64,000 nucleotides of DNA, taken from the NCBI GenBank assembly GCA_024682255.1, contig GCA_024682255.1_4716.1; one strand, written 5' to 3'. Origin of the DNA: a phage. The notes beneath the pieces were generated by a model. The model did no database searches. It saw only the letters and a list, made by a program, of their open reading frames with translations, and was not told the DNA's origin. Position numbers and translations under genes: made by a program. Position 1 is the stretch's first letter. The number at the start of each line of letters is the position of its first letter. Shown piece by piece: positions 2,217-44,109 of this stretch.

Positions 2217-2253
2217 AGCGCATCCCCATTCACTTGAACCTTTTGGTTCGGCA

Positions 2254-3234: not shown

Positions 3235-3298
3235 GTGAACTCCTAACTTAATATGTATTTAACGCACAATGAATCTTTCTTTGCTAAAGGGGTGACCC

Positions 3299-4976: not shown

Positions 4977-5351
4977 TTAAACTCCTTGTCGGATCATCAC
5001 CAACCGGAGCATGTTGTATTCCAATGTAGCGCTTTCTAATTCGAATTCATATCGATACCAGAAATTCGGCTCTAATTGACCTACAACACATTTACGAACA
5101 TCTGTCTGCACCTTCCTCGACAACACCTGTAACAGTTGTGTTATCTCCGGCTTGAAGTAATACGCCAAACCTAACTGATCAGAATAAAACAGGCCACAAT
5201 CAAAGATGGCCTGTAAAATAACATATTCAACCATCAGGTGACGCGCATCGGGGTCAGGGAATGGCGAACGTAAAGCGAGGTCTAACACATCGACGATTGG
5301 GCCGACATAAATGGCGGCGCGGTACTCACGAATAACACTGATGTTATCCAT
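4977..5351 (-). CDS. hypothetical protein
   Basis: 124-aa ORF. Confidence 0.45.
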   Translation of the reverse strand: MDNISVIREYRAAIYVGPIVDVLDLALRSPFPDPDARHLMVEYVILQAIFDCGLFYSDQLGLAYYFKPEITQLLQVLSRKVQTDVRKCVVGQLEPNFWYRYEFELESATLEYNMLRLVMIRQGV

Positions 5352-5364
5352 GGTAGCCTATTCA

Positions 5365-6189: not shown

Positions 6190-7204
6190 TGTTCATTTTC
6201 TCCATTGCAACGAATCGTTCAAGCTCGCGTAATAAACGCTCTTTTAACGCAGGATCAACTTCCGGAGCATGTTTATCACGATACCACTCTGTCCCGTTGT
6301 ATTGCAGGCTAACATGCCATGTTCCTAACGGGCTTTCCTCTGCAGCAGCGATGAAATTCTTAACGCCGGTTTTGGTAGGATACTCCATGATAGGAACGGC
6401 CTGCTTCAGATCCATTACGGTAAGATCCTGGAAGTTATAATCCAGAAGCGTTAATGCGCGTTTGTCGCGTAGCAGTAGCCCGCAATCTAAGATGGTGAAA
6501 TCGATACCCCAGAAACGTAACTTGCCTCCAACTCCAACAGGAGTGTGGCCACGATAAACCGCGAGATAAATCTCACCTTTATCGGTTTCCTTGTTGTACC
6601 CAGCAATGAACGCCGCTGTAATTAATGGTTGATGTCCTTTCGCTAAGAAGACAGGGTGGTTATGATACAACCAGTCACTACGAATCAGATCGGTAACCTG
6701 ACCTAAACGTGCTGTTGGTACCATCACCGATCCCAGAGTCTCATCAACAGGAACCTCGTAATATTCAAACAGAACGCCATCGATTTCTTCGGTAGCGTAA
6801 GGCGTACGTGTAGGATCGTTAAGGAGTTTACGGAGTTTTGTGTCGATTTCGTTAACACGGCTACCCTGTTCTTTCTCACGACTACCGATAACAAAAGCAA
6901 CAAGATTGCGCACGCTAACAAAAACATCATCTTTCTCGGTGTCGCTGAGATCAGCTTCATCCGGCATTGTTGTCCAATGTAACGGACCTTCAACGACCTT
7001 AAGCCATTTATCTTCACGTTCAGGATAAACAAAAGGCTTATGCACAGGAACACTGGTATGCTGAACCCGTAATAACAGGTTACATAACGATGGCAATGTT
7101 TTCTCCAGAGGAGGGACAATACCTGATGTAACGGAAATAACGTAACGATTAAGAACAAGAGAAGCTGAATAGGTGATGTTATCTAATCCTGGTAATTGAT
7201 CCAT
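6167..7204 (-). CDS. hypothetical protein
   Basis: 345-aa ORF; AT-rich 300-bp region upstream. Confidence 0.5.
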   Translation of the reverse strand: MDQLPGLDNITYSASLVLNRYVISVTSGIVPPLEKTLPSLCNLLLRVQHTSVPVHKPFVYPEREDKWLKVVEGPLHWTTMPDEADLSDTEKDDVFVSVRNLVAFVIGSREKEQGSRVNEIDTKLRKLLNDPTRTPYATEEIDGVLFEYYEVPVDETLGSVMVPTARLGQVTDLIRSDWLYHNHPVFLAKGHQPLITAAFIAGYNKETDKGEIYLAVYRGHTPVGVGGKLRFWGIDFTILDCGLLLRDKRALTLLDYNFQDLTVMDLKQAVPIMEYPTKTGVKNFIAAAEESPLGTWHVSLQYNGTEWYRDKHAPEVDPALKERLLRELERFVAMEKMNNDVNDEQ

Positions 7205-24427: not shown

Positions 24428-25237
24428 TTACCAATGATTAAAGCTGCCCGCTTTAACGACGTCGCAACGCAGATGGTTACGTAACTGATCCAGGAAGACA
24501 ACCGGACTGTCGCCAGACAACATGGCCAGCGCGTGTTGACCACCGGAACGAACAACAAGCTCATCAACCATTGGTGCTGTGATCGGGAGATCGTACGCAT
24601 CCATGATTGCTTTGGCTTCCTGTTCTACGTCTTTCTGGAACCCTTCCATCGTCGGAGAGTCATATTTGGTTGCAAACTCGATCCCAGGTAAGTTAACGTA
24701 ATCGTAAGTCATGACACGGGTCATAACACGACGGCGTTCACGCTGCCAGATCTGAGGATCGGTTAACGCGCGAACAGAAAAACACACGTTCACCAGCGGC
24801 GTTTCAAAATCTTTACGTAATGGATCACCGTACGGTCCGCAAGGAATAACATCCCCCATCACCATCACGACAGGACGCCCACGACGATCACGTCCAGCTT
24901 CTTCTAACCAAATCTTAGAAAAACAATGGCTTACCTTCGTTTCTTCGATTCGTAATGCTCGCTGCAAAAAGCTGGTTGCATCCTGACCGATCTCTGGTTT
25001 AGGGTGACCGTATTCACCTTTCAACGAACGATTGCGTGCGTTTGTTTGCAGTAAGCTGTTTTCCAGGAACAGCGGTTTCGAACGCTCAAGTTCGTAATAC
25101 TCTTCGGTATTGTTAAAACAGTTAAATCCGCCTATAACACAGGTGTAGGCACCGTCAGCATTAGGACGGATAATACCTTTCTTATTCACACCAAGATAAC
25201 TGGTGCAAACAAGATTACTAATTGGTGGTTGCATCAT
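24428..25237 (-). CDS. hypothetical protein
   Basis: 269-aa ORF. Confidence 0.5.
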   Translation of the reverse strand: MMQPPISNLVCTSYLGVNKKGIIRPNADGAYTCVIGGFNCFNNTEEYYELERSKPLFLENSLLQTNARNRSLKGEYGHPKPEIGQDATSFLQRALRIEETKVSHCFSKIWLEEAGRDRRGRPVVMVMGDVIPCGPYGDPLRKDFETPLVNVCFSVRALTDPQIWQRERRRVMTRVMTYDYVNLPGIEFATKYDSPTMEGFQKDVEQEAKAIMDAYDLPITAPMVDELVVRSGGQHALAMLSGDSPVVFLDQLRNHLRCDVVKAGSFNHW

Positions 25238-26049: not shown

Positions 26050-26760
26050 TCACCCCCTCAGAATCGCTTCTGTTTCGCTGATCGTATCCGCAGGATAAAC
26101 CAAACTACTATCGATTGCGTTATTCACGTAACCACCCATTAAGTTGGTGATGGTGTTTGTACCGCTATCGATAATGTTTCGTAATCCGATGTCGATGGCT
26201 TTTAACGTACTGCGTTCTTCATCCGAAAGCAAACGCCACGCTCGACGACGATCGTTGGGGTCACGTGTGGTGATAGACGCCAGAACAGAATAGATGCTGC
26301 TGTCTGCGTTCAATTTAACGCCAGCCAATTTCGCTGACGTATAGAGCAGCTGATATTTTTCTTTCTCAGTGTACCACCATGGCACCTTACCGAGCGTATA
26401 GATCTCGTTATACATCAGCCATGGGAAAGAGTTTCGCATCACGACATCGGTCGACACCAACACCGTGTCGCCGGGAAGAAACACAAATTCATAAAACGGC
26501 TGACCATCCATGGTAATTTCACGGATGTCAGACGGGTCGATATGGAGCTGGGTCAATGCGTGGCTGACACCATACTGTCCATCAGGAAGAATAATCGGGC
26601 AGCACGCACAAACCCGGTTCTCACTCCCGATGATAGATAAACCCAATCCCTCGTAACGGACGGGTGTCAGAATCGAACACCCGCCACGAGTAACAACAGA
26701 TTTATCTTCTTGTATGTCCCAGTCCGCAAGCACCGCAGCACCGTTGCGGACAAGCGCCAT
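26050..26760 (-). CDS. hypothetical protein
   Basis: 236-aa ORF, tightly abutting neighbours. Confidence 0.5.
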   Translation of the reverse strand: MALVRNGAAVLADWDIQEDKSVVTRGGCSILTPVRYEGLGLSIIGSENRVCACCPIILPDGQYGVSHALTQLHIDPSDIREITMDGQPFYEFVFLPGDTVLVSTDVVMRNSFPWLMYNEIYTLGKVPWWYTEKEKYQLLYTSAKLAGVKLNADSSIYSVLASITTRDPNDRRRAWRLLSDEERSTLKAIDIGLRNIIDSGTNTITNLMGGYVNNAIDSSLVYPADTISETEAILRG

Positions 26761-28618: not shown

Positions 28619-29728
28619 TTATTTAGCGTCGTTAAAGTAAATATCAACAGCTCGTTCCGTTGCGTAGAGGAGACCAAGATTCACAGTCCCAACCACTTCC
28701 GGTGAACCGATGATACGGTTAGCGATACTGGTGCCACTGAAGATAGCATCAAGGGTGTGCCCGTCTTCGGTTTTGTTCACACCATGACCCACGGAAGAGA
28801 CAACGGATTTCGCTTGAGCTGCGAAGGTACCTTTATCACCCATCCCCGCACCAAGGTCGTAACGCATGAAAATACGGATGGCGATCTGGTTCTCGCCTAA
28901 CGGATTACCGTCTATTCTCACGTTACTGTTATTGATACGCCCCGTTGTTGCTTCGTTGAGTTTCAGTTCCTTAACGCGTTTAGCTCGTGCTTTATCCGCT
29001 TCACCGACGAGCGCTGCCATGGTTTCACTCATATCCTCAATCTGAGCGCGGTACAGTACATCGATCTGTACAACTTCACCATGAACGTCAGCACGTGGGT
29101 TATACTGACTCATACGACGTAATGCTTCAACGGCTTCCTGACTCTCATCACTCAGATCGGTTGCAATCGGTTCTTCCAGTGTTGCAAGGATCGTTCGAGG
29201 TTCAACGTGATCGCCGATTTTCACGAGACCGCGAATGTTGAGATGGGCGTCAACGATAAGCGTACGGCTCTTAATCGATGGTGTTACGAGACGATCGGCA
29301 AGATTGTCGAAGATATACGAACTGTCCTCGTGGGTCTCTGGAATATCCAGAATACCGACAAGAGACAGCACGCCTGCGCGCCAAACAACCTGACCTGGGT
29401 TCCACCAGTCGCGTTTAAAATAAAGACGATGGAAAACCACCACATCCTGATCCTTAACGCGATCCCCGACTTTATAATCGGTAATGAGATCGTGAGGATA
29501 ATACTTACCTGGTCCTTTCCCGATTATCGTACCGAGCTGGAAAACCTCTTCCCCTAACTCTGGATCGTCGTACTGTATCGTCAGCGCAGTTTTGGTGACC
29601 TTCTTGACAACACCATCGCCTTGGGCGGCAGCTGCGAAGAGTTTACCAACACGATGCGCGATAACAGTCTCACCGCCGGTGCGCCACGGTTGTACATCGT
29701 AACCTTCAGCAGCAATCATGCGGTTGTG
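28619..29728 (-). CDS. RNA polymerase beta-like subunit, exon 2 (track ORF 28619-29749 begins at an in-intron TTG that is not a real start)
   Basis: HNRMIAAEG matches beta ANRALMGAN; GDKGTFAAQAKSVVS matches beta GDKMAGRHGNKGVIS; frame open upstream into intron. Confidence 0.75.
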   Translation of the reverse strand, partial: HNRMIAAEGYDVQPWRTGGETVIAHRVGKLFAAAAQGDGVVKKVTKTALTIQYDDPELGEEVFQLGTIIGKGPGKYYPHDLITDYKVGDRVKDQDVVVFHRLYFKRDWWNPGQVVWRAGVLSLVGILDIPETHEDSSYIFDNLADRLVTPSIKSRTLIVDAHLNIRGLVKIGDHVEPRTILATLEEPIATDLSDESQEAVEALRRMSQYNPRADVHGEVVQIDVLYRAQIEDMSETMAALVGEADKARAKRVKELKLNEATTGRINNSNVRIDGNPLGENQIAIRIFMRYDLGAGMGDKGTFAAQAKSVVSSVGHGVNKTEDGHTLDAIFSGTSIANRIIGSPEVVGTVNLGLLYATERAVDIYFNDAK

Positions 29729-30264
29729 CTGTATACCTATAAATACCAATCTCTTGGGCGAATTTAGTTCTTATTCAACATAATCGTACTATTACCAGAA
29801 TAAGACTGAGATTAGATTGTTCAGATAAGGTCGTTGCTTGAAACGATCGTTTCAGCGCTCATCTTATCCCGGAGGCGACGATAGGCACATCACCTCCCGC
29901 TTGCGCTCTCACGCAAGAGCAGACTATATCACATCTCGTTTCAAACGGTGCTTCTTCAGCACCTCAACGAGAGTTCACTTCTTCCCAGCGCATCCAGCGC
30001 CATTCTCTTATCCAAGGAGAATGCCTCACTCGAGGGGTACAGGGGGATGAATCCCTTAGTCGTTGAACCTTTACCTTAGAACGCTTCACAGCGATCCTTA
30101 GGTACTTGGCTGCGGATTGTCCTTAAGCTATTATCTGTTTTTATACCATACCGTCTTTCTTTTCAGAATCCGTTTTGGTCGATAACAGCGATGGATGTCT
30201 TCGCAATTCAGTGAATCTCATCTACATGTCGCCACATAGACGGACCCTGCTATTAAAAGCGTTA
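29729..30264 (-). ncRNA. group I self-splicing intron (no ORF) in RNAP beta-like gene
   Basis: minus-strand P (AAUUGCGAAGA, 30198-30208), Q (AAUCCGCAGC, 30109-30118), R (GGUUCAACGACUAAGGGAUU, 30050-30069), S (GAUAUAGUC, 29922-29930) in canonical order; exon ends in U, intron ends in G. Confidence 0.8.
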
Positions 30265-33200
30265 ATCATCTCTATCAGCAGCAGGTACTGCAAGTGCTGA
30301 TGTACTCATTATTGACGAGCTACCATCCGTTTTCTCGTCGTAGGGTTTCGTTTCACCGTATACAGACACAATGTTTGCGTTAGGTGCAAGGTAAGCAGAG
30401 ATACCTACGTCCCCACTATCCTTCGTACCTTCGGATACAACACCAATGTCCGACTTGTCGTATTCACGATCGCGTGCGCGTCGAAGCGATGTCTTTGAAC
30501 GACCCCCAATACCGGTCATCGTCGCTTCTTCACCCTGCTTGATATCCAGCATCGGGTTGGTTTCATCGATCACGATGGAAGCACTGTCGTCGAGAATTTG
30601 GTTCCAGACACTTACCGGACTGATTGAGATTTTCTGGCGATTTCCTTGACTGCTGTTCTCATTCTGACGAATAGCGCCAACCAGATCCTTATACACCAAT
30701 TCAGCGAACTTATCGTACGTTTTAAAACGTTGGTAGTTCACATCGTTCGTGTTAGGAGCCCAATCATCCAGAAGCAATTCAACAGCACGCAGTAACAACA
30801 TGGCGAAATCGGTAGGTTCTCCCATGTTCTGCAGCAACATACGGCTTACCGGATCAACGAAAAGACGCTCCATGAGTTCAAGTTCGCGTAAATGACGAAC
30901 CTTAAGTCCGGCACCATCGACAACGTTAAAATAGATATCTCGATTGTCAAAAGCGCCGCGAGCGTAACCAATGTAGTTACGGTATTCGTTAAACCCACCC
31001 AGCAACAACGTCGTCATGCGGTCGTCTTTACTGAAGATCAAACTTTCGTCGTCAAAGCTCACCGCGAATTCATCGGGTGCTAGACCCATACGAGAACCGC
31101 GAGGTACCGTACGATAGTTTGCTTTAAGATGTTCTAATAACGGGGTGAGTCCGCCCAGATAACTTAGAACAACACCGACCGGAATACGTACACCCATGAA
31201 TTCAAGATCGGCAGCTTCGATCGGCATCTTGGCCGCATTGATGCCGAAGAAATCAGGGAACGTCCCTACAGGTGTTGGTGTTTGTCCTGACTGACAGATA
31301 TAGAGCTGATTGCGTTTATCGATTGCTAAGAATTCACCCAGCGTGTTACGCGCAAACGTCAGGAGCCCTTCGGCTAACTGTTCGTTGAACCGATCTTCCC
31401 CAATGAACTCCGGTAGCGTTTTTATATCGAGACGTATATCCCAATCAGCAAATTGGATTTGGGTATAATTGCGCGCAAGCACAGCGAAGTAGTACGGAAC
31501 TTTGACAGCTGGATCAAAGACGTTACCACGTTTTAACGTGGTTAAGGGTGAGGACTTATCGTAATACATCGCTGTAAGTTGACGTGTTAGCCAACGACCC
31601 GCATTATTAACGACGCGCTCTGAACGTTTAACAAACACCTTACCGTAGGCGGTACTCAATGCAACTTCGGATGACGATACCTTTCTAATAGGTTTATCAA
31701 CACGTTGTTTACGCATCCGGTATTTGATGCCGTTAACGACATAAATGCCGTCCTTACGAACCTTCGGCAACATCACCGGGAACGTGGTCGGGACACCGCC
31801 TACAGGAGCCAGTTTAATCGTGATGACTTGATAATCCCCCATCACGTCAACGACATCTTCAACTTTATATCCCGTGACAGGGTAACCTGCCTGCTGTACC
31901 GCAACAACGGCAGCTGCGATGTCCTTTTGCATTACGTGTTCGACGTAATGTTTATCCCACACCGCGAGCGTCGATTTACATAAGCTCTTGTCGACGATAA
32001 CATCCGCTTCCGGCATAACCTTTGCAGGCGCTAATTTCGCGGCTTTTGGTTTAACTTCAACATACTCGGCAAGTGTTAATCCAGAACCGTCGGGTGCTTC
32101 GATTTCGTGAATGGCATCGGCGTTACGCATCGCTGCTTTATATTGGACACCGCTTAACTGACCCGCATCGGCCAGATCGCTCGCGCGTACCAACACCGCA
32201 TCCGATAACGACTGAATATATTCACCATGTGTTTTTGGTAACGTTGTCGCATCAAAGACATCAACCTTTTCTTCTTCGGTATCGTCGGTAACGACTTCGA
32301 AGAGATCGTCGGTAATGTCCTGATCTTCATCGGGTTGGAAATCCGGCTGTACTTCTACCCCGGGTACTTCACGGACATCTTCGAACGAGCGTTCTACAAT
32401 GGCGTTCCACGCATCAGCGTCATCGTCTTCATCCGAACCACCGACCAACTCCGCTTCTAACTCATCGGGATCAAGAACGGTAGCCAGATCCTCACCGTTA
32501 GGAAGCACGACGTCGCGATCATCGTACTCCGCATCCGGGCTGTCTGCAAGAATATCCCGCTCTTGACGAAGAACCTGTTCCTCTTCTTGTTTCTGTTCTT
32601 CTTCATTCGCGCTCTGCGACCACAGACGTGTTACCGCCATCATCCAACGACGCTGGAAGGTTTCGAGTGTCGTTTTATCGAGTTCTTCCCCTTCCTTTAC
32701 AAGTCCGGTACGCCATTCTTCCAGCAAGCCGAGATTCAGCGTAAAGAAGTACACACCGTCTGTAAATACAACGTTAAGCTTATCCAGCGTGGCCCTGTCT
32801 AACGAAGCCATCGTGCTGTTCTCACGATCGGTTCCCAGCCAGCGGAAGAAGTCAAAGAACGACAGCTCCTCCGGTGTGGCGAAATTCATGAGGTTGTTAC
32901 GGGTCGGTGCCTGTTGCGTGGTACGCATCAACGAAATCTTCGGCAATGTTGACGGTATACGGAACAACAAAAAGTGTTGACGATCGCTTTGCTGTGCGAT
33001 TTCGTTGGCTTTCGACCAAATTGTTTTACGTACGTTGAACCATTCATCATACCAACGGGTGAGCGTTGGACGATAAATGTACATGTGGTTAAGATGCGCG
33101 TAGTTAGCAACGATCTGAGCGTTGATGTTTTTCTCTACCGTGCTTAGATCGGTAACCAAACGAAAACGACGATGTGATGCACGATAATCCAATTTCGCTC

Positions 33201-33471
33201 GTGGGAGTTGGAATCGTTGATCGCGTCGAGGTGCGCCCTGTTTGGTTGCGAGATCATCAGCAAACGAAATCCATAGTTGAGCACTTTCTTTACTCAGCAT
33301 GTATTCGTTTTCTGGAGGACCTATCAACGATGGATCCGTTGCGGTGTAATGATAGACAGCATAACGCGGCAGCTGCAATAGCTGCACTAAACGTAATCTC
33401 GGTGATAGTAGCTCTTGGTAGCGTCTGACACCGAACTGTCGGTAGTAATCAAGGTATTTAAGTTTTGCCAT
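30265..33471 (-). CDS. RNA polymerase beta-like subunit, exon 1 (includes ~450-500 aa non-RNAP N-terminal extension)
   Basis: MTGIGGRSK...SGDVGISAYLAPNAN matches beta ALGPGGLTRERAG...PEGPNIGLINSLSVYAQTN; C-terminal VPAADRDD matches beta IPFLEHDD. Confidence 0.8.
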
Positions 33472-33474
33472 GGG

Positions 33475-33654
33475 TTAGGCTCCACGAGGTCCCGTTAAGT
33501 TGCGTAATAGGAACGCAACTGTATCGTAACCAATATCAATGTTGAATTTATTTTTACCGCTTACCCAAAAAGCACGCTTCTTGTGCGAGTTGGTAATTTC
33601 GTCAATGGCTTCCATGGAATAAAGAACGTTAACCGAGACCGTATCACCGTCGAA
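33475..33654 (-). CDS. RNA polymerase beta-prime-like N-terminal subunit, exon 2 (59 codons, not in ORF track)
   Basis: translation FDGDTVSVNVLYSMEAIDE...NIDIGYDTVAFLLRNLT matches beta-prime [21 protein letters not shown]...VLGLYYMT; preceded by G (omega-G), stop 4 nt before beta-like start. Confidence 0.7.
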   Translation of the reverse strand, partial: FDGDTVSVNVLYSMEAIDEITNSHKKRAFWVSGKNKFNIDIGYDTVAFLLRNLTGPRGA

Positions 33655-35731
33655 CCTTTTCTTCGCCTCAGGTCGCTACGCTGAGACCGCCTGCGTGGAT
33701 ACGTACATCACAGGCTGCTTGCACTTTCATGCAAGAGGAGACTATATCAAACCGTCAGCTTCACCTTCTCGATCGTATCGAGAATGCGGTGCTGAAGTAT
33801 TCTTCAGCAGCACCTGCTACGGTAACCTACACTTCGAAGACGCTTGTCCTCTACAGGGTGGTAAATCCCTTAGTCGTTGAACCTGCGTTGTTTCACATTC
33901 TTGTTTGCAAGAATGCCGTATTGCTACGCAACAACCAGGCTGCTGATTGCCCATTATCACGCACCTTAGCACCGCTTACGCGGCTTTTCTTTCAGCCTAA
34001 GCCTCCGTGGGAGGTAATGTCTGATTAAATCAGACATCGCCAGGAGGTAGTGCATCTCAACTGTTGTTTCCGCCTTTCGGCACCTCATGGGTTGTTGAGC
34101 TTTAGGGGTTCCCAGCAATTCGTAGGTTTTTCAAGCACTCCCTTTCGGGAATACCGGACCATTACCCTTTAGCTAATTTATTTAAGTATCTGAAATCCCA
34201 CTTATCTTTGCGTCTATTTTCGCACTTAATAGCTTGGTTCTTTATTCTCCAAGCCACCTTTGTTTTAGGTAATTGGCTGTAATTGGCCGCTGACGCAGTA
34301 CCTAAAACAACGGTTACGGTACCATCGGGTTTAGTAATCTCTACAGCGCGATAATGCTTACGTAACACATTACGCCAATATTCACGGCGTTCTGGCTCAG
34401 CATACTCAAGCATATAACCGTTGGTATCGACCAGACCGTAACACTCGTTTAAACGAGAGGTAGCGGCCGGTCTACTAATACCGATTGCTTTAGCCGCGTC
34501 AACCACGGTTTTATACGGGGTTTCATTACCGTCTCTATCTACAACCACAATAAAATCTGGACGCGAATCGAGCAGCTGCTGTCTTCGTTCAAGGGCTTGT
34601 TGATGAAGCACCTTGTTAACATGTTCGAACCCGTAACCTTCTGGACCGCGCCACCCTGGATTGTTATTCGCTCGATAAAGTACCGTCGCTGATTTCACTC
34701 CAGTCTGACGTGACGCCTCGTTTGCACTATGAACAACCGTGGTAGAGCCGTCAGGGTGATATATCCGTATCTGGTTCATTATACCGGAACCAACAAAATT
34801 ACCATCAGCTGATTTAATATCCGGCCATGGTTGAGGATTATCCTTGAATTTAACCACCCAACGACTGTTAAACAATTTGACTTTCCGGGCATGTTTACCC
34901 ATTGTCGTATCCGTAACACCAGCTACAACAGAGGCTTGCGTGATACTCAGGTACTCAGTAACGGTATCGTCCCATGTATCCCAGAGCAGAACCGGTTTAT
35001 TGTCGTCGCGTAAACCGTGTTCGATAGCATGCAGGACATTACGACTTCTGGTTGCCCATTCAAGGTTGTCAAGAGAATAGTTCCACTTATCGGCATCAAG
35101 ATGGTTAACGTCCATCCTATCGACATCGGCTGGATACTCTCTCCACGCCAGCATTAGACAACGGTGTAATACCTTGCTACCGGCCTTCTGGCGACAATCA
35201 TGTTTCAAGCAGACAGTAACGTAACGGTTCGTTACGAAACACGGGCGACAAATGCTCCCGTCTTTTCTGTCCCTGATATCACCTACTTCGTTTATTACAT
35301 ATCTCGTCAGTCCTGGAATAACGCGATAGCCAGGATACTTAGCGATTTCATAAGCGGGCTCGAACCGATAGGATAAATTATCAACATCCCAGTTAGATTC
35401 GTCACCATCAACAAACATCGCTTTGACGTATTTCTGTGTTTCAATATCAACCAGGATGTTTTTGTGTGCGATACAAATCAATGCTGGGATATTGAATTCG
35501 CGACCGGCTAAGATAACCGTGTCGCCATCTCTCGGTACCTCGACGTGGGTATCGCGATACCGCAAGTTTCCATAGCCGTCTATTTCAATCCAGCTTAGAA
35601 ACGGAATAGATATAAATTCTTTTTCAGATACTCGCCATTTAAACATATAAACCCCTGTATAACCTTACTGTCACACTAAGAGGTTTATCTGTAAATTCTT
35701 ACAGAATGGCGTAATTTTACTAAAAGGGCCG
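33655..35731 (-). mobile_element. group I intron carrying an HNH homing endonuclease gene, inserted in beta-prime-like gene
   Basis: minus-strand P (AAUUGCUGGGAA, 34109-34120), Q (AAUCAGCAGCC, 33939-33948), R (33864-33883), S (33740-33748); HNH ORF upstream of core; 5-prime boundary by homology. Confidence 0.7.
34162..35646 (-). CDS. HNH homing endonuclease (HNH_3-type with NUMOD/IENR-like HTH modules), intron-encoded
   Basis: motif NHLDADKWNYSLDNLEWATRSRNVLHA; C-terminal AAKAIGISRPAATSRLN HTH-like repeats. Confidence 0.85.
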   Translation of the reverse strand: MFKWRVSEKEFISIPFLSWIEIDGYGNLRYRDTHVEVPRDGDTVILAGREFNIPALICIAHKNILVDIETQKYVKAMFVDGDESNWDVDNLSYRFEPAYEIAKYPGYRVIPGLTRYVINEVGDIRDRKDGSICRPCFVTNRYVTVCLKHDCRQKAGSKVLHRCLMLAWREYPADVDRMDVNHLDADKWNYSLDNLEWATRSRNVLHAIEHGLRDDNKPVLLWDTWDDTVTEYLSITQASVVAGVTDTTMGKHARKVKLFNSRWVVKFKDNPQPWPDIKSADGNFVGSGIMNQIRIYHPDGSTTVVHSANEASRQTGVKSATVLYRANNNPGWRGPEGYGFEHVNKVLHQQALERRQQLLDSRPDFIVVVDRDGNETPYKTVVDAAKAIGISRPAATSRLNECYGLVDTNGYMLEYAEPERREYWRNVLRKHYRAVEITKPDGTVTVVLGTASAANYSQLPKTKVAWRIKNQAIKCENRRKDKWDFRYLNKLAKG

Positions 35732-37240
35732 ATCACCGCCTAAACCGGCGAGGTATGGCGCAGGAACAATAGTCGTTTCTACGAACGAAGCATTAGGTAA
35801 CCAGTCGGGGTATTCCCATGCGATAAATCGTTCATCCGTTATTGGTTCCCAGTTACTATCCAGTTCGGTTTTCGGTTTTGCAGCGACGGTTGTACGCGCG
35901 TAACAGGTTAACGGGATAACGGATTGCATACCCGATACCGGATAACGTGTTACCATCGCAGCCAGGTTATTCCAGTACTTATATCCGGCGATATAGATAA
36001 GCTCGGTGTAAGTAATGGGGTGAACATCCGCACCAGGTTTATTCAACATCTCTGGGGGTAATTCACTCATACCACGGAATAACCGAAACGAATCGTTGTT
36101 CACATAGACGAGGCAAAGATAACGTCCATTGACCATGATAGGTTCATTACGCACACCAGGATCGCTTAAGGTGTTCAGTAAACGTTCGATACCGTCCCAG
36201 GTTGTAAAGTCATCGATGGTGTCTGGATCAAGCGTGACACGTTCACGTTCCATCGTTTCGGTATCGATAAGTTCAACTTCTGTAACATCACGGACAAATA
36301 TTTCCTGCAAAATCCCCGTACGTAACGCATGTTGCGTTACAGGGAGAGCAGCTTTACTCATCTGGTATAACCCTAACTGAACCGCGGTACAGGAAGGCTG
36401 GTTAGGCGACCCTAGTACCTCCGTTGTGGGGTTAATTGCCGAAATAACGTTACGGGTTGAGTTCCAAACGCGACGTGAACCGAACTTGCCTTGGAAGATC
36501 CCTTTCTTACCTTGGAACATATCCAACAACAAAGCGTAGATATCGTTAAATGTTCTCTGTAAGCTCCAGCGCTGGCCGTCGTAAACGGGATCAGAATAAT
36601 CTTTTAATCCATCAGGGACGGTGTTAGAAATTGCAAGGAAACGACGATACAACTCTGTGATTTCTTGCTCGCTTTCATACCCGCCTTCTTTTACTTCTAT
36701 TTCACGTAAGCCCGCAGGTAAAACCAGTAAGTGACGAGTCATCGCTTTGAACATGTTCTCTTCGACAACTTTAATTCGTAGCTCTCGTTGAGCTGAACCT
36801 GTTGAAACGAACTTGATATCCGCGACGTGTTGTGCAAAGAACCCATATCCTGTTTGTCCTGTTAACGCATCAGACGCAACGAAGTCGCGTTGTTCAGGAT
36901 CCCACCGAGCGTACGCCTTCCCCGACATGATATCGCCATAGAGGTGTTTTAGTCGAATGAGGCGATCGTAAATGACGGGATGCAGGATTTCAACCTTACA
37001 TTCAATCACCGCAAATCGACGGTCTCGATCTTCGCTACCCGCACTACCAAAGATGGTGTAAGAATAGAAACCATCATCGTGGAAATTACCGGTGCTTGGG
37101 TCACGGATGCTCATGCTCGTGATCTTGGGGAGAAAACGTAACTGCTGTTTATCGAGGTGTAAAATACTAATGTTAAACGGCTCTCTGACTTTAGCCATGG
37201 AGACACTCCTCTTTACCACCACCGGCTGCGGCGGTATCAT
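35732..37240 (-). CDS. RNA polymerase beta-prime-like N-terminal subunit, exon 1 (likely true start ATG at 37198; track frame continues to stop at 35720 inside intron)
   Basis: DGFYSYTIFGS ~ beta-prime DGLFCARIFGP; LLVLPAGLREIEVKEGG ~ [30 protein letters not shown] ~ NRAPTLHRLG; exon ends LAGLGGD before FDGD of exon 2. Confidence 0.75.
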
Positions 37241-37350: not shown

Positions 37351-40300
37351 GTGAAGTTACGCTTCAACATTATCAATGCCGAAGGTAAACTTCGTGCATC
37401 ACGTTCCAACGTAACATGGGAACGTATCGAACTGGAGGTATACATGGTAGATAAAACCCGTGTTGAGGGTGATGATAATTGGGATAACTGGGATGAAGAC
37501 TTCTCCCTGGATCTCGATTTCAACGAACCCAAAGACGATCGTAAACCGATAACACGCTTTGCGGTAGGCGCGGTTAAAGGTGCCGCTGAGGATCTTACTT
37601 CCTACGAAAGAATGAAGGAGATCGCCAGAAACGCGTTGCCTAAGGGCTACAGCGACGGTATGGATCTTATCGATTCCGCCGTCGGATCCACGAAGGAACT
37701 ATACAATGAAGCCGTTCGTGACGTTCTTCCTAAGGTCCAAAGCTCAAAACGGTTAGCCGCACAACTAACCAAGAAATACCGTGCGAGCATGCCCGATTTC
37801 TCAAAGAAAATTCTCGAGCAATGGGAGCGAGAAGCCAAGGAAGAAGACGAACGTAAACAAGCTGAAGAAACCCTTCGTCAACGCATGGCGAGCGCTGGGG
37901 ACGATGAGATCGCCCGCAAGGTTGCCGAGGCATTAGGTGAATCAGCAAACCAAAGCGCGGATCAGTTCGCTGAACAGCAAGCAAAAGAAAGTATCCGTGA
38001 CGATATCGCTGACAAACGGTACGCTGTAACCAACAAACAAATGAGTGCGATGCAAGAAGGCGTCGCCAAGATGGTTGGTTTCAACAATGAATTCGCTGCA
38101 CGCTACATGCGTAAAAGCCTGGAACTGAAATATCGTTCCTTAGCGATTCAACGTGCGAGTTTTGATCAGCATAAAAAGTTAGCCGAAGTCTATATCGGTT
38201 TATTACAAAACATCCAGAAGAATACGGCTTTACCTGATGCGGCTAAAGCGAAAATGTCGGAAGAATTCCGTCGTAGCGCATACCAACGCTTCTTTGGTAA
38301 TGCGTTAGATGCGATGGGTTCTTTCGAGAACCGTTTCTTTGCCGATGTTAAGAAGAACCTTGCCACCAACGCATTAGGTGCTTTAAAAGGCGTCGTATCT
38401 GGCGCAAACGATGCGTTATACGGTTTAAACGAAGCGCGTGACTCGATGTCCATGATGGACGGGATGGGGTCAGAAGGCGATATTAAGGAAATGCAAGGAA
38501 AGATGTTGGGTCAGTTCATTGGCTCAACTGTCGCCCCATGGATGGCTAATAAAGGCAGGATGGCGTTACGCGATTTAGCAAAACGTCACCCCAATGCTAA
38601 ATTCGCTAGCGCGTTAAAAGCCGTGGATCAAGGTGGTGAGGCTGCCGCTTACACGACGCGTAATCTCGGTAAACTGCTCCAGGAAGATATTCGTAAAAAC
38701 GAATTCAATCTTAGCGATCCGTTTTACAAGCAATTAATACGTGGCGCAGGGCGTTGGGCGTTCAACATGGACAGCGGACGTAACTTCCGTGTGATGAACG
38801 ACACCGCTGAAACACTGGCGGAGCAAACGTCTTTCGACGGTTTAACTTACCGCAGCATCAACGAGGTTATTCCTGGCTTTCTTGCACGCATTCTGAAAAG
38901 CAGTGAAGGTATCCGCACCGGAAACAGCGATCCTGACTACGAGGTCTATGACGGCATCAGCGGGCAATTCGTGTCTCAGCGCACGCGTGAACAAAGCGTC
39001 AACGACACGCTGTTTAACAAACGTTCGTTTGGTTATTACGCAAGCCGTTTCAATGAGGTCATCTCGGTCATCGATCCTGATAAGCAATTATCGGAAAAAG
39101 CCAGAAAGGCGCTGGCTAAGCAGTTGGCACGAGATAGCGACGCAAATATCGCATTCGACCCGGCCCGTTTTACGGATGAAAGCAACTTCGATCGTAGTAT
39201 TGACCGCGACGCTATTAAGGAACTTTCCACGTACTTTCGTGACCGTTACGGTATTCGTGATGATGTCAACGATAAGGGCGAACGTCATCAGGTCATTGGA
39301 AACCGCGGGCAATATTACACGGAACGTAACCGAGCTGATCTTCGCTACGGAAATCTGAAATCGTTACAGCCGGATATCCAGCGTAACCTTAACCTACTGA
39401 AACGTACTGGCGACGTCCAATATCTGGAACGTATCGGTATTGTAACGAGAAATAGCGACGGAAGTTACTCGGTTAATCACGATCGGTATTTCTCTGAAAT
39501 CGATCGGTACATCGACCGACCGGAGTACGCTGAACGTAGTGATGTTAATACGCGATTAACCGCTCAGGAAACAAGAGCGCTGGCGCTAGGTTATCGTGAT
39601 GCAAAACCATCAGCTGGTGACGTCCAAAATGCGGGTCTGCCGAACATCGATCGTAAGGCTGTTGGCGCAGTAACCGTTGATGAAAACATCGGCTACGATA
39701 AATGGTGGAACGATACAGGTGTTATCACCACATCGCTTGAAGAACAGAATCGAGCATGGCAAGAGCTTTATCTCGAAGCGTTGTCTGAAGCATCCGAACA
39801 ACGTGTTGAAATGCTTACGTTACTGAAAGCCATTTCTGAGAAAGACTGGTCTAATAACGTTTCGCTGGATGGTGTAGATGTACCTGAAGGTGCGGCACCC
39901 ATTTCATTTATCGATCGTGCCAAACAAAAACTCGGTACACGCAACCTCTTTAAAGGTGGTCGTAATCTTCTCTGGAAAGGAATTAAAAATACCGCACGTT
40001 TGGGTGTTAAAGGCGCGCGCTGGGGTGCAGAACGCACGTTGGGTAGTTTGGTAAATTCTGGCCGACGCATTATCGATTTCAACCGCTTCGTGTTCGGCGC
40101 ATTATCCAAGGTTGATCAGGTTCCGTTTGACATTTACGTTAAAGGGGAATCCCAACCACGCATATTGGCGGCCAAACTTCGTCAGGGGTTATACTTCGAC
40201 GAAGCGACAGGAAAAGCCGTAAAACGGATGAAGGATATCAAAGGCCCACTCGTTGATGTGGATGGAAATATCGTAATCAGCAACGAGGATATCGAGAAAG

Positions 40301-43300
40301 GGTTGGTCACTCGCGCTGGTCGAGCCTTTGAGAATTCAGGACTTAAGGCGTGGGCACGTGAAGGTCTTAATGGAATCACGACGGTATTAAGTCTCCCACG
40401 GATGTTAAAACGCGGTGCGGTCGAGATCTACAAACAGCTCGACAAGACGCCCGACGTTTACGTCAAGGGAGAATCAACGCCTCGTCTGTTGTCCATGGTG
40501 TTAGCAGCGGGTGGGTATTTCCGTCGGTCGGATGGACAAGTCATCAAAAATCTTGAAGATATCGATGGTGATGTTGTTGATGCACAAGGTAACGTCGTAC
40601 TTACGCTTGCCGACATGCAGAAAGGACTTGTCGATAAATACGGTAAAGCGATTCGTCGCTTAAAAGAAAAGCTCATCAACTTCGGTGTAAAAGCTTTTAC
40701 GTTACCGTTAACGCTGCTACGTAAGACAAAGGACATCCTTAAAGCCCTTCCAGGTAAAACCGTTAACGGTCTACGACGGATGGGATTAAACTTCCAATCA
40801 CCTGACGCATTACTGGTGGGAACAACGTCGAGCATGGTAGATCGCCTCGATGCTATTTACCAGCTTCTTGACCAGCGTATGCCGGGAGGTGATAAGGATT
40901 ACCGCGATTGGAATGGTGATGGTGTTCGAGAAGGATCGTTGGAAGACCTGAAACGTAAGCGTGAAGCCAAGGAAAACGGTAAGGATGAATCAGGCAAAGA
41001 TTCCAATAAAGGAGAAGAAAAGGAGAAGAAACGAGGGTTACTCGGAAGCCTTTTCGATATGCTCGGCGATACCGCATTAGGCAAACGACTCATGGCGAGT
41101 CCGCTTGGAAAAATTCTGGGTGGTCTTGGGGCGGTGTTAAGCGGCGGAGCATCGTTAACCGGATTGTTAGGCAAGGGTCTCATTAGTGGAACCGGCGCGC
41201 TGGTCAAGGGAGGACTAAGTGCGGCAGGATGGTTAGGACGTGGTGCGTTAATGGCGGGCGGAGCCGCATTGAACGCTGTTGGTGGTTTATCGGGATTAGG
41301 CGCATTCCTTATATCACCTGTTGGGCTTGCTATTGCAGGTGGTGCATTGGCTGCTTATGCAGGATGGAAGATCTATCAGCATTTCGCCGAGAAGCCTGAC
41401 CCGATGCAGAAGCTCCGTCTTATTGCATACGGTGCAAAAGGGGACGATAAAGACTTCAATAAGAAGCTGCTTGCGACAGAAACATACCTCACCGATCACG
41501 TGGTTATGACCGGGGATACCATCGGATTCGATCCGAAAGCGGATTCTGAAAAGATTCTCGAAATCTGGGAATTGTCCCTGGAAGACTCCGACCGAATGAA
41601 CGAATGGAAACGCTGGTATCTGCATCGTTTTATTCCTGTTTTCGCTCGTGCGTACAAACTCTGGAAAGAGCATATGCCGGACGAGAAGAAATACATGGAA
41701 ATGGATAAATATCCGAACGGTGAGAACAAAGTGAAATGGTCGGAAGCGTTTATCTGGCCTTCCGATAGTCCTGACGGTCCGTATTACGTCGAAGCTAACC
41801 CGTTGGGTTCTTCTGGTGCGACGCGTTATATTGCTGGTCAAGACGTCAAAACCTTGATGCTGAAACAACTCGAAGCCATCAAGAAAGAGTACCAGAATCA
41901 GATCAAACAATACACTCATGATGAGGCTATTGCTGATTGGTCACGGATGTCTGACACACAACGTAAATCCGTTGCGCCTAACGCATTACGTGGTCAGAAA
42001 GCGTCGTTACGTTTTAACGATAAACGTTACAACAGCGCTGGCGCTAAAGGACGACAGAAGCTTGACGCGACCGCGGTTATTGAAAGCGTAGACCGTCGTG
42101 GTAGAAAATGGGTTGCCGGTGGATACATCGATGAACTCACCAGTCTCCGTGTTCGTGCGTACGGTATTAAGGTTCCGTTGTTAAGTCAGATAAAAGTGCT
42201 GATGGAACTCGAAGACGCTGTAGAACCCGGCGTTGTCGCTGAAGGTAAAGGTGTTAAATACGGTGGCGATCTTGTTGCGCTCTACAAGAAATTCGCGACG
42301 AAATTCGGAAGAGACGTTAACAGCAAGCGGGATCAGGATATCTGGTTCGCTTGGATGAATAACCGTTTCCTACCCGTCTTTTTAACCTATTACCAACAAG
42401 TTAGCGAAATGGGCGGTCAAGGGCTTCTGTCCGACGTGGTACAGAACCTGAAAGACAGCCAACGTTGGGAAATCGGTGAAGCACTTGTCGCAACGCAATA
42501 CCGTGATGAGAAAGGTACACTGCAGCCTGTATGGTCCTGGAATAGTTGTGGTTTCTCCGGTACTGAAGCTAACACCACCAGCAGTTCAACAAAGAGCCAG
42601 CTCGATCTGTTAAAAGAATATGCGGATAAAGAGAAGGTTCGTGAGAAGAACGCGGAAGCATCGCAAGAGGATGCCGATAAATTATCGAAGATCCAAGAGC
42701 TGATGATGAAGCAGGCTGGGTACGAGAAGAAAGACGGTGTCTGGCAGAAGAAATCTCGCATTACCGGTGGGATGAGTAACTCCGAAGCGAATTACAACCC
42801 CAATAGGAATAAGGTCGGTGAAAGCAGCTTTACGGCTTCGGCTACGTCCAATGCGGGATTGGGATCAACCGGCGATCTTACTGGATTGCCTAACATGGGC
42901 TTACAGAAACCTGCAATGGGACCAGGTCCTGAAGCTGGACGTCGTGCGCTTGTTAAATCCGCTGTAAAACGCGGCATTACCGATCCGATGGAAATGGCCA
43001 TGTTCCTTGCGAACATCGAACATGAATCGGGGAACTACACTCACGTACGTGAGGGGAACTATAAGACACCGGAGCGTCTTAAACAGGTCTTCCCTTACAA
43101 ATTCCGTGATGTGCAGGATGCCGCACAGACGATCAGCATGGGGCCGGAGGCGGTATTCGAACGTGTGTACGGTAATCGTAAAGATCTCGGAAACACACAG
43201 AAAGGAGACGGGGCGAAGTATTTAGGACGTGGCTTCATTCAGGTTACCGGTAAAGCTAACTACGCTCGTCTGTCTAAGACCTTGAATAAGGATCTTGTCA

Positions 43301-44109
43301 GCGATCCGACCTACCTGGAAACGCCGGAAGGTGCGGCGGAAGGTAGTGTCGCGTGGTGGCTCAACCGAGGTAATGTATTACGCGATCCCGCAAAACGGGG
43401 TGATGTGCGCCAAGTTCGTTATCTGGTTAACGGTGGTTTTAACGGATTACGTGATGTTGAACAGCGTTCAGCTTATTGGATTCAGGCGGCTAAGAATGGC
43501 ACCCTGAAGAAAATGATGGACGAGTTATCGGGGTCAACATCGGACGATCAAGTTGAAGGACCGACCACTGCCGAACAGGTGAAGAACGAAGCAGCCCAAG
43601 AGGCAAACGGAACACCTGCTGTAAGCAACGATCCGCAAGCCCCAGTATCTTCTACTACCCCTGAAGCTAAACCGTCTGCGGCTGCCGGTACTGCTCCAGC
43701 ACCTGGAGAAGCATCACCAACGCCTGGAAGTTTCGAAACAGCAAAAGCCGCGGCAGGACAACCGACATCAACACCAGCACCTAGCGATTTGCCGTCAAAC
43801 CCGGGTGCAAATCGAGGGATATCGGTTCCGAATACGCCTGCACAGGTTGCGCAGTCTGCGACACAAACATCGGTTGCGAGCGAGAACTTCTACGGCAGCG
43901 CAGGTGAAATTCTCCGACAGCAGCTGACCACACAGCAGAACATCGAGAAGAACACCGGTAGAACGAATGAACTTATTTCGGAATTAATCCAAGCCGTTAA
44001 GGGTTCTTCTATCGGTAAGGGTTCTGCAGGTCCTTCTCAACAACAGACGATGTCGCTACCTAATCGTCCGCAAGGAATCTCTCCAACACGGACAAGGTAC
44101 GCACAGTAG
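37351..44109 (+). CDS. giant virion-associated protein with C-terminal GH19-lysozyme-like domain (tape-measure/ejection-type; likely true start ATG at 37444)
   Basis: 2252-aa ORF; C-terminal FLANIEHESGNY...GRGFIQVTGKANY...YLVNGGFNGL; Gly-rich hydrophobic segment; internal ~110-aa tandem repeat; GGAGGT SD before 37444. Confidence 0.75.
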   Translation: MKLRFNIINAEGKLRASRSNVTWERIELEVYMVDKTRVEGDDNWDNWDEDFSLDLDFNEPKDDRKPITRFAVGAVKGAAEDLTSYERMKEIARNALPKGYSDGMDLIDSAVGSTKELYNEAVRDVLPKVQSSKRLAAQLTKKYRASMPDFSKKILEQWEREAKEEDERKQAEETLRQRMASAGDDEIARKVAEALGESANQSADQFAEQQAKESIRDDIADKRYAVTNKQMSAMQEGVAKMVGFNNEFAARYMRKSLELKYRSLAIQRASFDQHKKLAEVYIGLLQNIQKNTALPDAAKAKMSEEFRRSAYQRFFGNALDAMGSFENRFFADVKKNLATNALGALKGVVSGANDALYGLNEARDSMSMMDGMGSEGDIKEMQGKMLGQFIGSTVAPWMANKGRMALRDLAKRHPNAKFASALKAVDQGGEAAAYTTRNLGKLLQEDIRKNEFNLSDPFYKQLIRGAGRWAFNMDSGRNFRVMNDTAETLAEQTSFDGLTYRSINEVIPGFLARILKSSEGIRTGNSDPDYEVYDGISGQFVSQRTREQSVNDTLFNKRSFGYYASRFNEVISVIDPDKQLSEKARKALAKQLARDSDANIAFDPARFTDESNFDRSIDRDAIKELSTYFRDRYGIRDDVNDKGERHQVIGNRGQYYTERNRADLRYGNLKSLQPDIQRNLNLLKRTGDVQYLERIGIVTRNSDGSYSVNHDRYFSEIDRYIDRPEYAERSDVNTRLTAQETRALALGYRDAKPSAGDVQNAGLPNIDRKAVGAVTVDENIGYDKWWNDTGVITTSLEEQNRAWQELYLEALSEASEQRVEMLTLLKAISEKDWSNNVSLDGVDVPEGAAPISFIDRAKQKLGTRNLFKGGRNLLWKGIKNTARLGVKGARWGAERTLGSLVNSGRRIIDFNRFVFGALSKVDQVPFDIYVKGESQPRILAAKLRQGLYFDEATGKAVKRMKDIKGPLVDVDGNIVISNEDIEKGLVTRAGRAFENSGLKAWAREGLNGITTVLSLPRMLKRGAVEIYKQLDKTPDVYVKGESTPRLLSMVLAAGGYFRRSDGQVIKNLEDIDGDVVDAQGNVVLTLADMQKGLVDKYGKAIRRLKEKLINFGVKAFTLPLTLLRKTKDILKALPGKTVNGLRRMGLNFQSPDALLVGTTSSMVDRLDAIYQLLDQRMPGGDKDYRDWNGDGVREGSLEDLKRKREAKENGKDESGKDSNKGEEKEKKRGLLGSLFDMLGDTALGKRLMASPLGKILGGLGAVLSGGASLTGLLGKGLISGTGALVKGGLSAAGWLGRGALMAGGAALNAVGGLSGLGAFLISPVGLAIAGGALAAYAGWKIYQHFAEKPDPMQKLRLIAYGAKGDDKDFNKKLLATETYLTDHVVMTGDTIGFDPKADSEKILEIWELSLEDSDRMNEWKRWYLHRFIPVFARAYKLWKEHMPDEKKYMEMDKYPNGENKVKWSEAFIWPSDSPDGPYYVEANPLGSSGATRYIAGQDVKTLMLKQLEAIKKEYQNQIKQYTHDEAIADWSRMSDTQRKSVAPNALRGQKASLRFNDKRYNSAGAKGRQKLDATAVIESVDRRGRKWVAGGYIDELTSLRVRAYGIKVPLLSQIKVLMELEDAVEPGVVAEGKGVKYGGDLVALYKKFATKFGRDVNSKRDQDIWFAWMNNRFLPVFLTYYQQVSEMGGQGLLSDVVQNLKDSQRWEIGEALVATQYRDEKGTLQPVWSWNSCGFSGTEANTTSSSTKSQLDLLKEYADKEKVREKNAEASQEDADKLSKIQELMMKQAGYEKKDGVWQKKSRITGGMSNSEANYNPNRNKVGESSFTASATSNAGLGSTGDLTGLPNMGLQKPAMGPGPEAGRRALVKSAVKRGITDPMEMAMFLANIEHESGNYTHVREGNYKTPERLKQVFPYKFRDVQDAAQTISMGPEAVFERVYGNRKDLGNTQKGDGAKYLGRGFIQVTGKANYARLSKTLNKDLVSDPTYLETPEGAAEGSVAWWLNRGNVLRDPAKRGDVRQVRYLVNGGFNGLRDVEQRSAYWIQAAKNGTLKKMMDELSGSTSDDQVEGPTTAEQVKNEAAQEANGTPAVSNDPQAPVSSTTPEAKPSAAAGTAPAPGEASPTPGSFETAKAAAGQPTSTPAPSDLPSNPGANRGISVPNTPAQVAQSATQTSVASENFYGSAGEILRQQLTTQQNIEKNTGRTNELISELIQAVKGSSIGKGSAGPSQQQTMSLPNRPQGISPTRTRYAQ

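Follow-up and report, generated by a model that had tools for sequence, protein, structure and literature searches.

The vRNAP (virion RNAP) of nucleus-forming jumbo phages is assembled, packed into the head and ejected through the tail, and it starts the infection programme. Five subunits of this enzyme are known from Goslar virions, including gp207. For SPN3US gp241, Thomas et al. (2016) described a non-RNAP N-terminal domain of ~400 residues and proposed that it serves in head targeting (PMC5105663); the domain is kept on the SPN3US protein, which is unprocessed. In the 201phi2-1 orthologue, an N-terminal propeptide is cut off at TFE-275 by the prohead protease (PMC5694885). Since the module and its proposed part in head targeting are both already known from published work (PMC5105663, PMC5694885), the locus described here contributes another copy and not another phenomenon. 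What is new is a confident model of a fold without a match, the rule that the tether behind it is always acidic, evidence from the available part of a peptide list that the module is retained in Goslar virions and a negative test of kinship with phiKZ gp68. The vRNAP has to be packaged and to find early promoters without a sigma-like subunit, and the module, as its only large non-polymerase part, is the obvious handle on both. A literature search found no structure of a vRNAP.

The window, a stretch of 64 000 nucleotides (contig GCA_024682255.1_4716.1), derives from a Goslar-like E. coli chimallivirus. By sequence comparison, the ORF at 30262–33471 on the minus strand is exon 1 of the vRNAP beta-N gene of the Goslar gp207/phiKZ gp178/SPN3US gp241 family. 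Its product shares 98.6% identity with the Goslar protein and is covered by phrog_3148 with an E value of 2.8e-290, residues 4–1069 aligning with profile positions 2–1050 of 1424 with the N-terminal region included. SPN3US gp241, phiKZ gp178, 201phi2-1 gp273/274 and Goslar gp207 (Chimalliviridae, PHROG 3148) are homologous to the window protein from end to end, including the N-terminal domain (NTD). No family match was found in Pfam or NCBIfam, and no PDB sequence was matched by the ORF in a phmmer search. The locus order is syntenic with Goslar, 201phi2-1 and the phiKZ-type KTN4: beta'-N adjoins beta-N upstream, a virion protein of 2252 residues that carries a lysin is encoded divergently, and the genes for beta'-C and the prohead protease follow downstream. 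This beta-N is a subunit of the virion RNAP, and not of the non-virion RNAP (nvRNAP) on which the earlier note had drawn for comparison. The features of the locus are as follows.

33475–33654, minus strand: exon 2 of the vRNAP beta'-N gene (FDGDTVSV..., with the catalytic DFDGD motif; TAA stop at 33477–33475)
33471–33469, minus strand: start ATG of beta-N, at which the NTD begins
29759–30264, minus strand: group I intron (506 nt, no ORF; Rfam RF00028, 56.3 bits, E 2.5e-12)
28619–29758, minus strand: exon 2 of the vRNAP beta-N gene (PKR, 376 further residues and the stop; phrog_3148 positions 1055–1420, E 1.2e-118)
26050–26760: beta'-C, downstream of beta-N
24428–25237: prohead protease, downstream of beta-N

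With the TAA of beta'-N 3 nt ahead of the beta-N ATG, the point at which the extension begins is fixed. The ORF does not amount to a complete gene; it is exon 1 of a gene for 1448 residues that is split by the group I intron between DRDD and PKR, and its apparent stop codon (30262–30264) falls within the intron. Predicted splicing yields a product of 1448 residues, 1435 of which are identical to the contiguous Goslar gp207; the Goslar gene is devoid of the intron, whereas the window gene carries it in an ORF-less form. The beta'-N gene is likewise interrupted by an intron, with a predicted splice junction at 33654/35732, and its predicted spliced product (562 residues) aligns over its full length with the intron-less 201phi2-1 gp275 and KTN4_220.

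All four sequence motifs named in the earlier note occur in the product of this ORF, and the region that it singled out (32000–33471) corresponds to residues 1–491. Its description of an N-terminal extension of ~450–500 residues without RNAP similarity stands, with ~480 residues preceding canonical beta. The exon 1 product can be divided into four parts.

32602–33471, minus strand: NTD, residues 1–290, a basic (pI 9.6, net charge +9) alpha/beta domain specific to vRNAP beta-N
32212–32601, minus strand: acidic linker, residues ~291–420, which holds EEEQKQEEEQ (residues 290–299), DEDDDADAWN (residues 347–356) and DFQPDEDQDITDD (residues 377–389)
32032–32211, minus strand: conserved helical connector, residues ~421–480, with helices at 422–435 and 441–451, between the linker and canonical beta
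30265–32031, minus strand: N-terminal half of canonical beta, residues ~481–1069, with the protrusion, lobe and fork regions; exon 1 ends with ...ADRDD

Beta similarity had been thought to begin only at IYVVNGIKYRMRKQRV (residues 576–591, window 31699–31746), which proved too late: the canonical beta N-terminus is probably near residue 480, ~95 residues earlier. This boundary is placed by a predicted helix–helix–strand arrangement (residues 502–554) together with DKSLCKSTLAVWDKHYVE, both of which we take to resemble the N-terminus of E. coli beta. In a Foldseek search of the ORF product against the PDB, the N-beta subunit of AR9 nvRNAP (7s00_c, E 7.7e-10, TMt 0.62), which has only 484 residues, aligned with residues 403–1069 and was followed by bacterial beta chains. 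The family profile aligned with Thermus beta at ETNPL..GPGG and in the EHDDANR region, and its comparison with Thermus and E. coli beta shows that the catalytic-core motifs are present (the GxGGR region, and DRDD as the equivalent of EHDDANR). Searched against all PDB sequences, the same profile gave matches limited to central and C-terminal beta motifs, with none in the N-terminal region; the hhalign alignment with E. coli RpoB begins only at the fork region and does not place the beta N-terminus. Neither profile nor fold comparison aligned the extension with beta1 or beta2, so the suggestion that it might be a canonical protrusion and lobe after all has failed, and hidden protrusion or lobe domains were rejected on the negative fold test.

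According to a confident model, the NTD would adopt a fold without a solved relative. The fold searches also returned a weak match to a PBS1 protein. The connector is modeled with a pLDDT of 85–91 (model 2) and has the consensus DxLAxxGxxSAAEYRR...IxxPxG. The earlier note had raised a relation between the extension and the extra subunit of the nvRNAP, phiKZ gp68. The two are alike in that gp68 and its AR9 counterpart gp226 also add non-beta, non-beta' mass to a jumbo-phage multisubunit RNAP; they are, however, separate polypeptides of the non-virion enzyme, with neither sequence nor fold similarity to the module. With hhalign, the family profile reached a probability of 5.6% against gp68 across 21 columns that lie outside the extension, in an unrelated region, and neither a PDB sequence search with the profile nor the fold search matched gp68 or AR9 gp226. 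With both the sequence and the fold tests negative, kinship with gp68 was rejected.

The strongly acidic tract described earlier is confirmed. Residues 289–404 contain 46 Asp or Glu in 116 positions, compared with 12.5% in the remainder of the protein (binomial P = 1.6e-13), and have a net charge of −39 and a pI of 4.05. The linker (residues ~291–420) is probably disordered; the pLDDT falls past residue 290 and is below 50 at residues 403–419. Identity to distant homologues is only 9% in the linker, compared with 26% in the NTD and 37–39% in the core. Among 131 relatives the linker varies in length from 16 to 180 residues and in Asp/Glu content from 18 to 52%, and it is net-negative in all 131 (median charge −20). 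The NTD is net-positive in 125 of the 131. The charges of the two parts are weakly correlated in these relatives (rho −0.20, P 0.02), and charge compensation between them was rejected for this weakness.

Goslar gp207, which is 99% identical to the spliced window protein, was detected in virions by mass spectrometry from 47 peptides that cover 46.6% of it, with its copy number estimated at 9–21 (supplement of 10.64898/2026.04.21.720040). In the part of the Goslar peptide list available here, the only two N-terminal tryptic peptides that can be tested, residues 155–171 in the NTD and 306–319 in the linker, were both detected in the virion preparation. Because these peptides come from both parts, the module is apparently kept on at least part of the Goslar virion protein and is not a simple propeptide there, as far as this part of the list goes. 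In 201phi2-1, the TFE-275 site is part of an inserted segment that separates the NLGxLxxWR helix from the final helix of the NTD.

The module is not a new fusion in this phage, but is family-wide and always N-terminal in vRNAP beta-N. With residues 1–575 as the query, the acidic tract dominated the word index and 0 sequences were returned; with this tract deleted, 44 homologues were returned. Using tblastn, the NTD was located exactly once in each genome across 239 phage records, in every case in the vRNAP beta gene, and the module was found in 683 protein clusters. This vRNAP-only phylogenetic pattern fits a role in promoter specificity as well. An HMM search of the window ORFs revealed no paralogues of the NTD or connector, the best hit being a fragmentary match (E 0.02) to the large terminase. 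A locus rich in introns, next to which the Goslar annotation is incomplete, could lead to an annotation artefact, with an unrelated upstream gene joined to beta through an overlooked stop codon, a frameshift or a misplaced start codon. We regard this as exceedingly improbable: the reading frame is unbroken, the ATG follows the stop of beta'-N exon 2 by 3 nt, conservation starts at residue 1 (consensus MxxYxxFYRxFGVRR), the same architecture recurs throughout the records and clusters above, and both Goslar virion peptides in the available list map to the same protein. A mis-annotated gene fusion was therefore rejected on the conservation from residue 1 and the peptide evidence.

For the vRNAP-specific accessory module of ~480 residues we tentatively favor, at somewhat less than even probability, a role in head assembly, the NTD docking the polymerase for packaging and the tether giving reach. 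The module is composed of the basic alpha/beta domain of unmatched fold (residues 1–290), the acidic tether (~291–420) and the short helical connector (~421–480). We infer that the NTD may help to attach the pre-assembled five-subunit polymerase to internal prohead components, its putative partners, so that the enzyme is packaged. The Glu-rich tether would provide reach and, in some relatives, would expose a site for the prohead protease, such that the NTD is removed after packaging, while in Goslar-type phages the module would remain on the mature enzyme. The mature 201phi2-1 enzyme must work without the NTD, which suggests a role before or during maturation. The `recruitment' considered in the earlier note comes close to this published head-targeting hypothesis. 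In SPN3US, an amber fragment of residues 1–670, which includes the whole domain, was not detected in particles, and a knockout of beta-C or beta'-C (gp218 or gp244 absent) deprives the particles of full-length gp241; the domain alone thus does not suffice for incorporation, unless protein left unassembled is simply degraded.

Three other roles were weighed against docking. The module, or the linker and connector that are left after cleavage, might provide for promoter recognition or serve as a scaffold for the separate parts of beta and beta', resembling gp68 or gp226 by function and not by descent. Alpha, omega, sigma and gp68-like subunits are all missing from the vRNAP, the module is the sole sizeable non-beta, non-beta' mass of the five-subunit enzyme (PMC7598289), it is kept in SPN3US virions and, from the available Goslar peptides, in those of Goslar, its predominantly positive NTD is compatible with nucleic-acid binding, and an identity of ~26% is conserved as in a functional fold. 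We nevertheless consider this role unlikely, as residues 1–275 are removed from the 201phi2-1 virion enzyme, which must transcribe early genes, the module resembles gp68, gp226, sigma and alpha neither in fold nor in sequence, and its invariant residues (Pro, Gly, Tyr and Arg) point to no obvious DNA-reading motif. The same low probability is given to the acidic tract as an autoinhibitory DNA mimic analogous to region 1.1 of sigma70, which would fill the DNA channel or associate with the basic NTD, keep the enzyme off the densely packed genome both within the head and on ejection, and be displaced at promoters; such a function would be compatible with a packaging role of the NTD. Both are acidic N-terminal elements tethered to an RNAP component that could occupy the DNA channel, but region 1.1, a part of sigma, folds into a small helical domain, whereas the tract is of low complexity, variable in length, probably disordered and located on beta.

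Conservation of acidity rather than of sequence speaks for such mimicry, as does the persistence of the tract on the mature 201phi2-1 protein, where the TFE-275 cut is upstream of it, and in Goslar virions as judged from the available peptides. Linkers rich in Glu are, however, to be expected in any case, given the cleavage by the prohead protease after Glu residues and the acidity that is usual in disordered tethers, and neither the wide range of linker lengths nor the weak charge correlation between NTD and linker fits well with a mimic. Somewhat less likely still is a combination in which the basic NTD and the acidic tether amount to a `sixth subunit' of regulatory function, joined to beta, that keeps the polymerase inert on capsid DNA, by mimicry or intramolecular masking, and later licenses early-promoter recognition or assembly, with packaging being secondary. 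Licensing would then follow injection into the early-infection vesicle and would substitute for alpha, sigma and gp68.

The vRNAP of phage N4 offers a parallel as another virion-packaged and injected polymerase, but it is a single-subunit T7-like enzyme for which no homology with the window vRNAP is expected. Its catalytic core is reportedly flanked by large non-polymerase domains that are needed for encapsidation and injection, a finding attributed to Kazmierczak et al. (2002). Terminal domains do exist in N4 vRNAP and their roles are still under study (PMC13492108). The capsid-targeting sequence (CTS) of T4 and the propeptides of giant-phage head proteins are, like the module, N-terminal and tied to the delivery of a non-structural protein to the prohead; the likeness to a propeptide extends to removal by the prohead protease after Glu in at least one relative. 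The T4 CTS, however, spans 10–20 residues, compared with a folded domain of 290 residues and a linker of ~130 residues here, and the module differs further in being kept in SPN3US and, on the available Goslar peptides, in Goslar, and in not being sufficient in the SPN3US mutants. The conservation of a 290-residue fold that far exceeds a T4 CTS in size hints at an additional function. Candidate S/A/G-x-E motifs, which are common in a Glu-rich tract, are located in the window protein at GEE-263, ANE-290, SDE-348, SFE-364 and GVE-373.

The beta-N gene encodes the N-terminal beta piece of the virion-packaged RNA polymerase (vRNAP), in a 10 kb neighbourhood whose DNA shares 94.6% identity with that of Escherichia phage Goslar. 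Its first ORF is 98.6% identical to the Goslar protein and matches phrog_3148 ('RNA polymerase beta subunit'; PHROGs, E = 2.8e-290), with residues 4–1069 covering profile positions 2–1050 of 1424. The family is that of phiKZ gp178, SPN3US gp241 and 201phi2-1 gp273/274. Since Goslar gp207 is one of five vRNAP subunits found in Goslar virions (gp78, gp196, gp205, gp207 and gp210; Goslar virion paper), the gene belongs to the virion enzyme and not, as the earlier note supposed, to a non-virion RNA polymerase (nvRNAP). The relevant features are as follows.

24428..25237, prohead protease
26050..26760, beta'-C
28619..29749, minus, downstream ORF continuing beta-N (phrog_3148 profile positions 1055–1420)
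29759..30264, minus, group I intron in beta-N (506 nt, ORF-less; Rfam RF00028, 56.3 bits)
30262..33471, minus, beta-N exon 1 ORF (1069 residues)
33475..33654, minus, exon 2 of the upstream beta'-N gene (reads FDGDTVSVNVLYSMEAIDEI..., with the catalytic DFDGD motif)
33655..35731, minus, group I intron in beta'-N (2077 nt; ribozyme core 33718..34180, Rfam 57.9 bits)
34162..35646, HNH endonuclease ORF in the beta'-N intron (Pfam HNH_3)
35732..37240, minus, beta'-N exon 1 ('beta-like' ORF 35720..37240)

Goslar gp207 is a single contiguous CDS of 1448 residues, whereas the window copy is interrupted by the 506 nt intron. Comparison with Goslar sets the end of exon 1 at 30265 (..ADRDD) and the start of exon 2 at 29758 (PKR..), giving the junction DRDD/PKR and a predicted spliced product of equal length, in which 1435 of the 1448 residues are identical to gp207. 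The insertion site is that of the mobile intron in PhiPA3 gp210, a homologous vRNAP gene, which is described as lying directly after two conserved aspartates (PMC11620839). The intron is missing from Goslar at 94.6% identity and its presence therefore differs among close relatives. The Aeromonas phage CF8 orthologue is annotated as two CDSs of 1079 and 359 residues, 433 bp apart (1561..4800 and 5234..6313 of the CF8 locus), and the gap looks like the same intron site, unannotated.

Upstream, the beta'-N intron sits just ahead of the DFDGD motif. Splicing at 35732/33654 is predicted to give a 562-residue protein that aligns end to end with its 201phi2-1 and KTN4 orthologues, whose genes have no intron. 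In Goslar the second exon is identical, yet the gp205 CDS annotation comprises exon 1 only, without the active-site motif. The TAA stop of beta'-N exon 2 (33477–33475) is followed 3 nt further on by the beta-N ATG (33471), and the beta-N N-terminus is conserved family-wide from its first residues (consensus MxxYxxFYRxFGVRR in a 41-member alignment); together these rule out a mis-annotated fusion as the origin of the N-terminal extension. Divergent from the vRNAP genes lies an ORF of 2252 residues (37351..44109, plus strand) with long low-complexity stretches rich in Ala/Gly/Ser/Pro. It is the counterpart of Goslar gp204, which has a lysozyme/chitinase-like domain (COG3179), and occupies the position at which KTN4 and 201phi2-1 have an annotated giant virion protein bearing a peptidoglycan hydrolase.

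The alignment of 41 family members and two AlphaFold2 models divide the extension into three parts. The N-terminal domain (NTD; residues 1–290) is a mixed alpha/beta fold (pLDDT 90.9, pTM 0.89) and is basic (pI 9.64, net charge +9; net-positive in 125 of 131 relatives). Its invariant residues in the 41-member alignment (P35, G79, P81, Y133, P173 and R216) form no obvious catalytic constellation. Model confidence collapses after residue 290 and stays below 50 until residue 419, defining an acidic linker (residues ∼291–420), and a conserved, confidently modelled connector (∼421–480) follows with helices at 422–435 and 441–451. The strongly acidic tract described in the earlier note is real: the strings that it quoted lie at residues 290–299 (EEEQKQEEEQ), 347–356 (DEDDDADAWN), 377–389 (DFQPDEDQDITDD) and 576–591 (IYVVNGIKYRMRKQRV), and residues 289–404 contain 46 D/E in 116 positions against 12.5% in the rest of beta-N (binomial P = 1.6e-13), with a net charge of −39 and a pI of 4.05. 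The linker is net-negative in all 131 relatives (charge −4 to −44, median −20; D/E 18–52%; length 16–180 residues) and is 9% identical to distant homologues, compared with 26% for the NTD and 37–39% for the core, so that acidity rather than sequence is conserved. From about residue 480 two predicted helices (502–528), strands from 532 and the motif DKSLCKSTLAVWDKHYVE form a pattern that we take to resemble the bacterial beta N-terminus, and we infer that canonical beta begins there.

The absence of RNAP similarity in the extension was also borne out. In a search of all PDB sequences the family profile matched beta in central and C-terminal motifs only, with nothing in the N-terminal region and no alignment to the protrusion or lobe; Pfam and NCBIfam returned no family. 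By fold, the model of residues 403–1069 matches RNAP beta chains, best the 484-residue AR9 nvRNAP N-beta (7s00_c; E = 7.7e-10, TMt 0.62) and then bacterial beta. The suggested kinship with phiKZ gp68, the extra nvRNAP subunit, found no support: hhalign of the family profile against gp68 gave a probability of 5.6%, with the 21 aligned columns falling in an unrelated C-terminal part, and neither the sequence nor the fold search recovered the phiKZ and AR9 fifth subunits, whose structures are in the PDB.

The module is specific to the vRNAP and has a fixed place at the N-terminus. In tblastn the NTD was found in 239 phage records, once in each, and every match lay in a vRNAP beta gene from a phiKZ-like phage; a phmmer search of 1.84 billion representative proteins gave 683 clusters, with the domain starting within the first 41 residues in 150 of the 150 matches listed. 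The best BFVD fold matches belong to the same family, the distant relatives Klebsiella phage YC1 and CF8 likewise carry ∼410–480 residues before the BLAST-alignable region, and no NTD paralogue was found in the window. In chimallivirus vRNAP beta-N the extension is already known and shared across the family, and the protein encoded here is 99% identical to that of a published phage. No vRNAP structure was found in the literature searched. What is added is a fold model that has no relative among solved structures, a universally acidic tether, the negative gp68 test and evidence of retention in Goslar virions; specialist interest is modest.

In the Goslar virion peptide list (supplement, 10.64898/2026.04.21.720040), gp207 has 47 peptides, 46.6% coverage and about 9–21 copies per virion. 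In the part of this alphabetically sorted list that was examined, both tryptic extension peptides testable there were found beside core peptides, ANEIAQQSDRQHFLLFR (residues 155–171, NTD) and DILADSPDAEYDDR (residues 306–319, linker), which indicates that the module is present in the virion preparation. According to its authors the preparation also held some non-virion assemblies, so gp207 may be partially processed. In 201phi2-1 the prohead protease removes an N-terminal propeptide of the orthologue at TFE-275 (Ali et al., 2017; PMC5694885). In the 201phi2-1 sequence this site falls within an insertion that follows the NLGxLxxWR helix and precedes the final helix of the NTD; cleavage thus strips off almost all of the NTD, while the mature protein keeps the acidic region.

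As a tentative preference, the module would serve to bring the assembled vRNAP into the prohead, with the acidic tract as a tether, since it is tied to the packaged enzyme, lies in the head-morphogenesis gene block that also holds the prohead protease and beta'-C, and is cut off by the maturation protease in one relative, where it is therefore dispensable for early transcription. The module would aid entry of the assembled polymerase, and the tract would be flexible, protease-accessible and DNA-repelling. Thomas et al. (2016; PMC5105663) described an N-terminal domain of roughly 400 residues, not RNAP-like, in SPN3US gp241 and hypothesized that it directs the complex, once assembled, to the head. 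Two SPN3US results count against a simple targeting signal: an amber fragment (1–670) that includes the whole domain is missing from particles, and loss of either beta-C or beta'-C leads to loss of full-length gp241. Alternatively, the module may be a specificity or assembly element substituting for sigma or alpha, or the acidic tract may be an autoinhibitory DNA mimic comparable to sigma70 region 1.1.

Among NTD-bearing metagenome-library proteins, 46 are 500–699 residues long and 41 of these stop at one place, just after '..YRMRKQRGD' (beta-N residue ∼592, window ∼31696), where the window gene is unsplit. The shared end point suggests that the gene is widely split at a second site, probably by another intron. 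The NTD fold also occurs in two BFVD proteins of 461–462 residues (A0A7G8ALW9 and A0A6B7ER73), so some phages may encode the module as an ORF or exon of its own. A related domain may exist in AR9-like vRNAPs as well, as hinted by weak BFVD matches (TMq 0.40, E about 5e-4) to a metagenomic 'RNAP alpha' entry and to a 921-residue protein of Bacillus phage PBS1.
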